Shown piece by piece: positions 1,333 to 4,183 of a stretch of 4,183 nucleotides of DNA (the first letter of the stretch is position 1; every line of letters starts with the position of its first letter). The position numbers and the translations under genes were made by a program. Location: the sequence record PP430145.1. One strand, 5' to 3'. The notes beneath the pieces are model-generated. The model was not told where the DNA came from and did no database searches. It saw only the letters and a program-made list of their open reading frames with translations. Source of the stretch: Enterobacteria phage FrSangria.

Positions 1333-1734
1333 ATGGCAAAATTAGAGACTGTTACTTTAAGTAACATCGGGAAAGATGGAAAACAAAATCTGGTCCTCAA
1401 TCCGCGTGGGGTAAATCCCACTAACGGTGTTGCCGCGCTTTCACAAGCGGGTGCAGTTCCTGCGCTGGAGAAGCGTGTTACCATTTCGGTATCTCAGCCT
1501 TCTCGCAACCGTAAGAACTACAAAGTCCAGGTTAAGATCCAGAACCCGACCGCTTGCGCTGCAAACGGTTCTTGTGACCCATCCGTTACTCGCCAGGCGT
1601 ATGCTGACGTGACCTTTTCGTTCACGCAGTATAGTACCGATGAGGAACGAGCTTTCGTTCGTACAGAGCTTGCTGCTCTGCTCGCTAGTCCTCTGTTGAT
1701 CGATGCTATCGATCAGTTGAATCCAGCGTATTGA
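1333..1734 (+). CDS. cp: Major coat (capsid) protein, 133 aa
   Basis: ATG at 1333 gives MAKLETVTLSNIGKDGKQNLVLNPRGVNPTNGV...LLIDAIDQLNPAY, ending at TGA 1732-1734. This is near-identical to the Qβ coat protein. The ORF track's start at 1309 is a TTG upstream of the real ATG and overlaps the A2 stop. Confidence 0.95.
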   Translation: MAKLETVTLSNIGKDGKQNLVLNPRGVNPTNGVAALSQAGAVPALEKRVTISVSQPSRNRKNYKVQVKIQNPTACAANGSCDPSVTRQAYADVTFSFTQYSTDEERAFVRTELAALLASPLLIDAIDQLNPAY

Positions 1735-2325
1735 ACGTTGCTCATTGCCGGTGGTGGCTCAGGGTCCAACCCCGATCCGGTTATCACTCCGGATCCACCG
1801 ATTGATCCGCCGCCAGGGACAGGTAAGTATACCTGTCCTTTCGCAATTTGGTCCTTAGAAGAGGTTTACGAGCCTCCTACTAAGAACCGACCGTGGCCTA
1901 TCTATAATGCTGTTGAACTCCAGCCTCGCAAATTTGATGTTGCCCTTAAAGATCTTTTGGGCAATACAAAATGGCGCGACTGGGATTCTCGGCTTAGTTA
2001 TACCACGTTCCGCGGTTGCCGTGGCAACGGTTACATTGACCTTGACGCGACTTATCTTGCTACTGATCAGGCTATGCGTGATCAGAAGTACGATATTCGC
2101 GAGGGCAAGAAACCTGGTGCTTTCGGTAACATTGAGCGATTCATTTATCTTAAGTCGATAAATGCTTATTGCTCTCTTAGCGATATTGCGGCCTATCACG
2201 CCGATGGTGTGATAGTTGGCTTTTGGCGCGATCCATCTAGTGGTGGTGCCATACCGTTTGACTTCACTAAGTTTGATAAGACTAAATGTCCTATTCAAGC
2301 CGTGATAGTCGTTCCTCGTGCTTAG
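1333..2325 (+). CDS. A1: A1 read-through minor capsid protein (coat domain plus C-terminal extension made by UGA suppression)
   Basis: The frame stays open from the coat UGA to the tandem stops TAG/TAA at 2323-2328. The extension ...GGGSGSNPDPVITPDPPIDPPPGTGKYTCPFAIWSLEEVYEPP...CPIQAVIVVPRA agrees with the Qβ A1 read-through domain as I recall it, including the Gly/Pro-rich hinge. Confidence 0.9.
1732..1734 (+). promoter_or_regulatory. Leaky UGA stop codon of the coat gene (programmed translational read-through site)
   Basis: The TGA at 1732-1734 is followed in the same frame by 591 nt with no stop until TAG-TAA at 2323-2328. In Qβ a low percentage of ribosomes read this UGA as Trp, producing A1. 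Confidence 0.9.
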
Positions 2326-2330
2326 TAACT

Positions 2331-2359: not shown

Positions 2360-4113
2360 CTTCGCATAACTCTCCTAGCGCACAATTGCGCCGAGCTGCG
2401 AACACAAGAATTGAGGTAGAAGGTAACCTCGCACTTTCCATTGCCAACGATCTATTGTTGGCTTATGGTCAATCGCCATTTAGCTCCGAAGCCGAGTGTA
2501 TTTCATTCAGCCCGAGATTCGACGGGACCCCGGATGACTTTAGGATAAATTATCTTAAAGCCGAGATCATGTCGAAGTATGGCGATTTCAGCCTAGGTAT
2601 TGATACCGAAGCTGCTGCCTGGGAAAAGTTCCTGGCAGCAGAGGCTGAATGTGCTTTAACGAACGCTCGCCTCTATAGACCTGACTACAGTGAGGATTTC
2701 AATTTCTCACTGGGTGAGTCATGTATCCACATGGCTCGCAGAAAAATAGCCAAGTTAATAGGAGACGCGCCGTCCATTGAGGGTATGTTGCGTCACTGCC
2801 GATTTTCTGGCGGTGCCACAACAACGAATAACCGTTCGTACGGTCATCCGTCCTTCAAGTTTGCGCTTCCACAAGCGTGTACGCCTCGGGCTTTGAAGTA
2901 TGTTTTGGCTCTTAGAGCTTCTACACACTTCGATATCAGAGTTTCTGATATTAGCCCTTTTAATAAAGCAGTTACTGTACCTAAGAACAGTAAGACTGAT
3001 CGTTGTATTGCTATCGAGCCCGGTTGGAATATGTTTTTTCAACTAGGCGTTGGTGGCATTTTACGCGACCGGTTGCGTTGCTGGGGTATCGATCTGAATG
3101 ATCAGACGATAAATCAGCGTCGCGCTCACGAAGGCTCTGTCACTAATAACTTAGCGACGGTTGATCTCTCAGCGGCAAGCGATTCTATATCTCTTGCTCT
3201 CTGTGAGCTCTTATTGCCCCCAGGTTGGTTTGAAGTCCTTATGGACCTCAGATCACCGAAAGGGCGGTTGCCTGACGGTAGTGTTGTTACCTACGAGAAA
3301 ATATCCTCTATGGGTAACGGATACACATTCGAGCTTGAGTCGCTTATTTTTGCTTCTCTTGCCCGTTCCGTTTGTGAGATACTGGACTTAGACTCGTCTG
3401 AGGTTACTGTTTACGGAGACGATATTATTTTACCGTCCTGTGCAGTACCTGCCCTTCAGGAAGTTTTTAAGTATGTTGGTTTTACCACCAATACTAAAAA
3501 GACTTTCTCCGAGGGGCCGTTCAGAGAGTCGTGCGGTAAGCACTACTATTCTGGCGTAGATGTTACTCCCTTTTACATACGTCACCGTATAGTGAGCCCT
3601 GCCGATTTGATATTGGTTTTGAATAACCTATATCGGTGGGCCACAATTGATGGCGTATGGGATCCTAGGGCCTATTCCGTTTACCTCAAGTATCGTAAGT
3701 TGTTGCCTAAACAGCTGCAACGTAATACTATACCTGATGGTTACGGTGATGGAGCCCTCGTCGGATCGGTCTTGATCAATCCTTTCGCGAAAAACCGCGG
3801 GTGGATCCGGTATGTACCGGTGATCATAGACCATACAAGGGACCGAGAGCGCGTTGAATCGGGATCGTATCTCTACGATCTCTTTTCGCGTTGCTTCTCG
3901 GAAAGTAACGATGGGTTGCCTCTAAGGGGTCCGTCGAGTTGCGATTCTGTAAATCTGCTTGCTATCGACCAACTTATCTGCAGGAGCAATCCTACTAAGA
4001 TAAGCAGGTCTACTGGTAAGTTCGATATACAGTATATCGCGTGCAGTAGCCGTGTTCTGGCACCCTACGGGGTCTTCCAGGGCACGAAGGTTACATCTCT
4101 ACACGAGGTGTAA
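2344..4113 (+). CDS. rep: RNA-dependent RNA polymerase, replicase beta subunit (589 aa)
   Basis: ATG at 2344 gives MSKTASSHNSPSAQLRRAANTRIEVEGN..., ending at TAA 4111-4113. It contains the catalytic YGDD motif at 3412-3423 (VTVYGDDIILPS). The translation is near-identical to the Qβ replicase as I recall it. The ORF-track start at 2335 (MKCM...) is an in-frame upstream ATG and probably not the real start. Confidence 0.95.
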   Translation: MSKTASSHNSPSAQLRRAANTRIEVEGNLALSIANDLLLAYGQSPFSSEAECISFSPRFDGTPDDFRINYLKAEIMSKYGDFSLGIDTEAAAWEKFLAAEAECALTNARLYRPDYSEDFNFSLGESCIHMARRKIAKLIGDAPSIEGMLRHCRFSGGATTTNNRSYGHPSFKFALPQACTPRALKYVLALRASTHFDIRVSDISPFNKAVTVPKNSKTDRCIAIEPGWNMFFQLGVGGILRDRLRCWGIDLNDQTINQRRAHEGSVTNNLATVDLSAASDSISLALCELLLPPGWFEVLMDLRSPKGRLPDGSVVTYEKISSMGNGYTFELESLIFASLARSVCEILDLDSSEVTVYGDDIILPSCAVPALQEVFKYVGFTTNTKKTFSEGPFRESCGKHYYSGVDVTPFYIRHRIVSPADLILVLNNLYRWATIDGVWDPRAYSVYLKYRKLLPKQLQRNTIPDGYGDGALVGSVLINPFAKNRGWIRYVPVIIDHTRDRERVESGSYLYDLFSRCFSESNDGLPLRGPSSCDSVNLLAIDQLICRSNPTKISRSTGKFDIQYIACSSRVLAPYGVFQGTKVTSLHEV

Positions 4114-4183
4114 CCTGGGAGGGCGCCATTATGGCGCCTAATTGTGAATAAATTATCACAATTACTCTTATGAGTGAGAGAGG
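4114..4183 (+). other. 3' untranslated region (partial, 3' terminus missing) with two stem-loops
   Basis: Hairpin 1 at 4122-4138 is GGCGCCA-UUA-UGGCGCC (7-bp perfect stem, 3-nt loop). Hairpin 2 at 4140-4163 is AAUUGUGA-(AUAAAUUA)-UCACAAUU (8-bp stem). The window ends in ...GAGUGAGAGAGG, without the C-rich terminal segment and the CCA/CCCA end expected for a levivirus. Confidence 0.75.

Follow-up and report, generated by a model that had tools for sequence, protein, structure and literature searches.

Our analyses indicate that the coat gene of Enterobacteria phage FrSangria ends at a leaky UGA (1732-1734, + strand) and that the coat frame continues beyond it into the A1 extension, as in the classical coat/A1 read-through of Qβ. 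We place the probability of this reading at about 97%; in it, near-cognate tRNA-Trp would compete with RF2 at the UGA and, in a few percent of passages, give rise to the 36-kDa A1 protein. No data contradicting this classical explanation were found. The read-through is already known for FrSangria and already annotated in its own GenBank record (PP430145.1), where the deposited A1 protein carries Trp at the UGA. The conceptual 330-aa translation with Trp at this position is identical to WZB35619.1, which was deposited as 'maturation read-through protein A1 [Enterobacteria phage FrSangria]'. In an exact-sequence look-up the coat, A2, replicase and conceptual A1 proteins encoded in the window (the whole 4,183-nt stretch of DNA analysed here) matched the deposited WZB35618-WZB35621 with no detectable difference. 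All sequence-testable features of Qubevirus coat-A1 read-through are present in FrSangria, namely a coat-family gene ending in UGA, an extension within the range of 195-199 codons, A1 homology, the gene order and selection on the extension. The case can serve as a calibration point, in that the sequence alone was enough to recognise recoding where a mechanical ORF list shows two separate frames.

Sequence comparison identifies the window as a nearly complete genome of Qubevirus durum, a Qβ-like ssRNA coliphage. A megablast search against annotated phage genomes matched the window to 81 Qubevirus records, the best match being Qβ strain HL4-9 with 95.1% identity across 100% of the window. The window is collinear with Qβ genomes over its full length and is of the + strand genome type of approximately 4.2 kb. 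Pfam domains were found on the + strand in the order expected of Qubevirus: maturation protein A2 (PF03863, E 8e-137), coat (PF01819 Levi_coat, E 6.3e-60), read-through domain (PF16814, E 9.7e-97) and replicase (PF03431, E 3e-217). All 15 of the relatives fetched are annotated with a coat CDS and a longer overlapping read-through CDS that share a start codon. Relative to HL4-9, the window is approximately 12 nt short at the 5' end, where positions 1-30 open with TTAGGGGGTCACC..., and approximately 26 nt short at the 3' end, where 4154-4183 close with ...GAGTGAGAGAGG; the terminal replicase recognition sequences of full-length Qβ genomes are therefore incomplete. A genome length of 4215 nt is given for FrSangria in a 2026 preprint on ApeA, and the record holds 4183 nt.

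The complete recoded A1 cistron occupies 1333..2325 on the + strand and comprises 330 codons with Trp at the UGA. Its first part is the major coat protein gene (1333..1734, +), with 133 codons including Met followed by the UGA, a PF01819 match and an exact counterpart in WZB35620.1. The coat start at ATG 1333 is the start annotated in all related records, among them HL4-9, Qβ and FrMerlot. The read-through site (1729..1737, +) consists of UAU at 1729-1731, UGA at 1732-1734 and ACG at 1735-1737; direct reading thus agrees with the single UGA in the context UAU-UGA-ACG given in the initial annotation. The extension, or A1 read-through domain, follows at 1735..2322 (+) and is closed by the tandem stops UAG UAA at 2323..2328 (+; TAG 2323-2325, TAA 2326-2328). 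The frame had been described as open for 197 codons. It is indeed open to the tandem stops, but the extension has 196 sense codons, and 197 is reached only by counting the UGA. An in-frame stop soon after the UGA would have told against read-through, and none occurs within the 196 codons. The predicted mass of A1 is 36.1-36.2 kDa (36.2 kDa with Trp at the UGA), in line with the roughly 36 kDa proposed earlier, and the predicted junction peptide across the UGA reads ...LNPAY-W-TLLIAGGGSGSNPDPVITPDPPIDPPPGTGK.

The mechanical ORF list splits this cistron into 1309-1734 and 1738-2325, as had been pointed out. Both starts are artefacts, because the list places a start at the first ATG/GTG/TTG after a stop, and the real coat start is ATG 1333. 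The statement that gene callers miss the read-through also holds for public assemblies, where automatic ORFs begin with MLIAGGG... (194 and 199 aa) or further inside the extension (122 aa). Taken at face value, the 195-aa ORF listed from TTG 1738 and the automatic calls that agree with it would make the extension a separate gene with independent initiation at TTG 1738. We consider this very improbable, because the codon is not conserved: of the 13 Q. durum genomes, just 4 have TTG at codon +2 and the rest have the synonymous CUG (Leu), and most genomes offer no start-like codon in frame until 74 to 112 codons further on. Further, the sequence upstream of 1738, TCCAGCGTATTGAACG, contains no Shine-Dalgarno-like run of purines, and Qβ A1 has the coat domain at its N-terminus and substitutes for a coat subunit in the capsid (PMC12469967). 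Read-through as recoding of the Qβ type rather than a separate gene, the original proposal, is instead what the homology, the annotation of the relatives and the exact match to WZB35619.1 all support.

The open frame at 1735-2322 is more than chance. Given the base composition of the window, 196 codons would be free of stops with a probability of 5e-5, and of 20,000 shuffles of the region just 4 had no stop in this frame (approximately 2 in 10,000). The other five frames of the same region contain from 2 to 22 stops. The extension matches the Pfam family PF16814 'Read-through domain' with 322 bits against a cut-off of 27 and, at E 1.1e-128, the 'A1 protein' entries 3RLC/3RLK of the PDB, the crystallised Qβ A1 domain, which it follows nearly residue for residue at approximately 98% identity. 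Protein alignment gave identities of 98.5% to the extension of Qβ A1, 73-74% to those of MX1 and M11, and 41-45% to those of SP, FI and NL95. The similarity to levivirus A1 proteins on which the initial annotation had made its interpretation depend is thus present in the family match, in the structure match and in the alignment to Qβ.

Comparison with 10 close strains clearly points to purifying selection on the extension in the coat frame. Substitutions fell at codon positions 1, 2 and 3 in 63/43/222 cases, codon changes comprised 202 synonymous and 86 non-synonymous cases, and the pattern is the same as in the coat gene itself. These results bear on whether the UGA could be a sequencing error or quasispecies variant of UGG, with a constitutive fusion as the product, or an efficient stop followed by an untranslated frame. 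Either is a formal possibility only, UGA and UGG being one base apart, and we regard the pair as extremely unlikely. An error or a constitutive fusion was rejected because the UGA is invariant, being present in 16 of 16 independent genomes from two species. A levivirus capsid, moreover, requires free coat protein as its major product, which counts against a constitutive fusion. An untranslated frame was rejected because such a region would not keep both the selection and the 98% identity to a crystallised domain.

The extension begins with a linker (1735..1818, +), in which protein alignment delimits a Gly-rich and then a Pro-rich, polyproline-type segment, TLLIAGGGSGSNPDPVITPDPPIDPPPG. Across protein alignments and public assemblies the extension measures 195-199 codons, and the insertions and deletions are confined to the linker segment. 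All of the length changes fall in a short Pro-rich stretch, a hot spot at approximately 1774-1791 within ...PDPVITPDPP.... Further linker variants, such as ENPGPINPKPVDPDPP, occur in public assemblies. A polyproline type II helix has been described for Qβ A1 (PMC8067240).

The stop site was compared among 16 Qubevirus genomes, 13 of Q. durum and 3 of Q. faecium. In all of them, and so in both species, the coat gene stops at UGA and never at UAA or UAG. The sequence before the stop is ...CCN GCN UAY (Pro-Ala-Tyr), so that a Tyr codon (UAY) adjoins the stop in every genome. The base at +4 is A in 13/13 Q. durum and G in 3/3 Q. faecium, and the base at +5 is always C. The A1 terminator, for its part, is UAG-UAA in 13/13 Q. 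durum and a single UAA in Q. faecium. In Q. durum the arrangement of the codons reads as a weak stop where leakage would be wanted and a double stop where it would not.

Under the classical coat/A1 read-through, ribosomes would start the coat cistron at AUG 1333 and arrive at the UGA at 1732-1734. Most of them would be terminated by RF2 and release the coat protein of 14 kDa. By analogy with Qβ, near-cognate tRNA-Trp would decode the UGA instead in a few percent of passages, and these ribosomes would stay in frame for 196 codons and stop at the UAG UAA of 2323-2328. The product would be the 36-kDa A1, consisting of a coat domain, the Gly/Pro-rich linker and a globular read-through domain. As in Qβ, A1 may then replace a coat subunit at a few positions of the capsid and be needed for infectious particles.

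For FrSangria, the insertion of Trp, a rate of 3-5%, presence in the virion and essentiality would carry over from the Qβ literature. In Qβ the UGA is read as Trp in approximately 5% of passages and A1 is a low-copy, essential protein (PMC6071253; PMC8067240; PMC12469967). The rate is put at 3-5% in a passage of PMC13517186 that cites Weiner and Weber 1973, and across sources the values range up to approximately 1 in 15 (PMC6071253; PMC8067240; PMC12469967; PMC13517186). That low-copy A1 in the virion is required for infectivity is attributed to Hofstetter et al. 1974 in a passage of PMC12469967. Viral stop-codon read-through was first described in the Qβ coat/A1 system, which is its founding example (PMC13517186).

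Our search for a special stimulatory RNA signal adjoining the UGA, by folding, alignment and a synonymous-site scan, gave no evidence of one. In nine-codon windows spanning the stop (1711-1746), synonymous variability was 1.65-1.72 times the gene average, and thus nothing beyond the protein sequence appears to be constrained there. Synonymous conservation was not raised directly 3' of the stop; variability fell to approximately 0.5 times the mean only from 1738-1779, and equal dips were seen elsewhere. In E. coli a UGA is intrinsically leaky when the next base is a purine, and a minimal signal of this kind is compatible with the results of the search. We infer that a dedicated stimulatory element is not needed and that the 'programme' may consist of the weakest stop, an open frame under selection and a strong double stop.

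Two candidates for a signal were examined and discarded. The first, a 6-bp hairpin with the UGA in its loop, forms in the FrSangria fold but lacks conservation, being broken in Qβ and VK. The second, the UGA-A context, is found at the end of the A2 gene as well and is therefore no special mark of the coat stop. The A2 stop lies at 1310-1312, with a second in-frame UGA five codons on at 1328-1330. In MX1 and BZ1 the A2 frame is also the coat frame, so that a ribosome reading past the A2 UGA (UGA-C in MX1) would make an A2-coat fusion; this shared frame is probably without function, because it is found in only 2 of the 16 genomes.

The UGA is also the selenocysteine codon, and with a small hairpin able to form around the stop in FrSangria it could in principle be recoded as selenocysteine through a SECIS hairpin. 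The hairpin is not conserved in Qβ or VK, however, and the literature has Trp at this position (PMC6071253; PMC8067240). When the whole window was scanned permissively against Rfam (E up to 1), no SECIS or other credible family was found, and the only matches were two chance miRNA-like ones, far below threshold. Selenocysteine is the least probable of the explanations that we weighed, and its likelihood is negligible.

Further downstream, RNAalifold on 15 genomes returned a conserved helix (1752-1758 / 1809-1815) with smaller hairpins inside it and, next to it, another hairpin at 1816-1840. Folding of the region gave unusual stability, with z = -4.3 for 1700-1860 (161 nt) and z = -6.8 for 1600-2000 (401 nt), and the same helices appear in both folds. 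Within the outer helix, four of seven pairs change on both sides among the 15 genomes and 97% of the cells are paired. The covariation score of the whole structure exceeded all 500 shuffles and every slid register, in a test where the structure was derived from the same alignment that tested it and most compensatory changes belong to the Q. faecium clade. Synonymous variability over the helix arms was 0.4-0.6 times the average, with dips at 1738-1779 and 1804-1830. Many other stretches of the gene show dips of the same depth, as would be expected of levivirus genomes, which are structured throughout. In the linker part of the helix, GGN codons for the Gly residues of GGGSG are paired with CCN codons for the Pro residues of DPPPG, and thus protein linker and RNA helix share the same bases.

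We considered whether the level of read-through is set or boosted by this structure, that is, by the helix with its inner hairpins and the hairpin at 1816-1840. The stable fold, the covariation and the synonymous dip would speak for such a role, and the entry for a downstream structure of Qβ in the 2026 review PMC13517186 is 'ND'. Against it, the synonymous sites flanking the stop are more variable than average, the dips over the arms are matched elsewhere in the gene, and the covariation carries the limits of its shared alignment and single main clade. Known read-through stimulators typically have a spacer of roughly 8 nt. The spacer between UGA and helix is 17 nt in the window and approximately 14-20 nt across the genus by alignment, which is longer and less fixed. 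No conserved structure at a short, fixed distance 3' of the stop was therefore found; the helix is present at a distance of 14-20 nt. Because this distance is long and variable, we keep the helix as a stimulator at a low probability, an unlikely explanation although less so than the separate gene, the UGG variant or selenocysteine. Slightly more doubtful still is that the branched structure at 1750-1815 and the hairpin at 1816-1840, lying 15-17 nt past the UGA, tune the rate through a slowed ribosome or RF2 access. If they did, the Gly/Pro-rich linker codons would act as protein linker and RNA helix at once. We found no evidence of an influence of the 1750-1840 structure on read-through.

The classical coat/A1 read-through was also set against other known systems. 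With Qβ (Qubevirus durum; Weiner and Weber 1971/1973; 3RLK/3RLC), FrSangria shares UAU-UGA-A, the gene order and the tandem UAG UAA. The differences are one extra linker codon in FrSangria (PVI-T-PD versus PV-I-PD), three substitutions in the extension, and synonymous changes in the pair of codons that follow the stop (ACG UUG versus ACA CUG). On this comparison the read-through site of FrSangria departs in nothing from that of Qβ. Qubevirus faecium (SP, FI, NL95) is alike in that its UGA comes after ...P-A-Y and its extension, 197-199 codons long, belongs to the same domain family; it differs in a G at +4, an extension that is only 41-45% identical and an A1 that ends in a single UAA. The MuLV gag-pol pseudoknot and the alphavirus nsP3/nsP4 stem-loop systems similarly combine a single leaky stop with a C-terminal extension made at a few percent (PMC13517186). 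Unlike these eukaryotic viral cases, the FrSangria system is bacterial, with RF2 opposed to tRNA-Trp, and its stop is without constrained flanks, the nearest conserved helix being 14-20 nt off and variable in position. In Qβ phage display A1 serves as the scaffold, and the protein is essential for infectivity.

Several features elsewhere in the genome were noted. The replicase ORF has its first in-frame ATG at 2335, whereas all related records annotate the ATG that matches window position 2344. ATG 2344 sits within a 20-nt hairpin, ATGCATGTCTAAGACAGCAT (2340-2359), which we take to be identical to the coat-protein-binding operator of Qβ. A long stem-loop (-28.6 kcal/mol, z = -2.1) is predicted at 3579-3668. 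Its position corresponds to that of the stem-loop described in the 2026 ApeA preprint as what the ApeA defence nuclease senses in FrSangria, although the numbering of the preprint may differ. The A2 protein (50-1309) carries an RGD motif (…KRGDLRAL…) and A1 is without one; RGD is found in A1 and/or A2 of most alloleviviruses (PMC6071253).

Two observations concern related database entries. The 90%-identity cluster of Qβ replicase includes many 283-aa enterobacterial EF-Ts proteins, the link probably being EF-Ts/EF-Tu/replicase fusion constructs in the database. A Lactococcus cremoris 'hypothetical protein' (TNU90119.1) on a 428-nt contig is in fact a 137-aa piece of Qβ A1, and is probably contamination.
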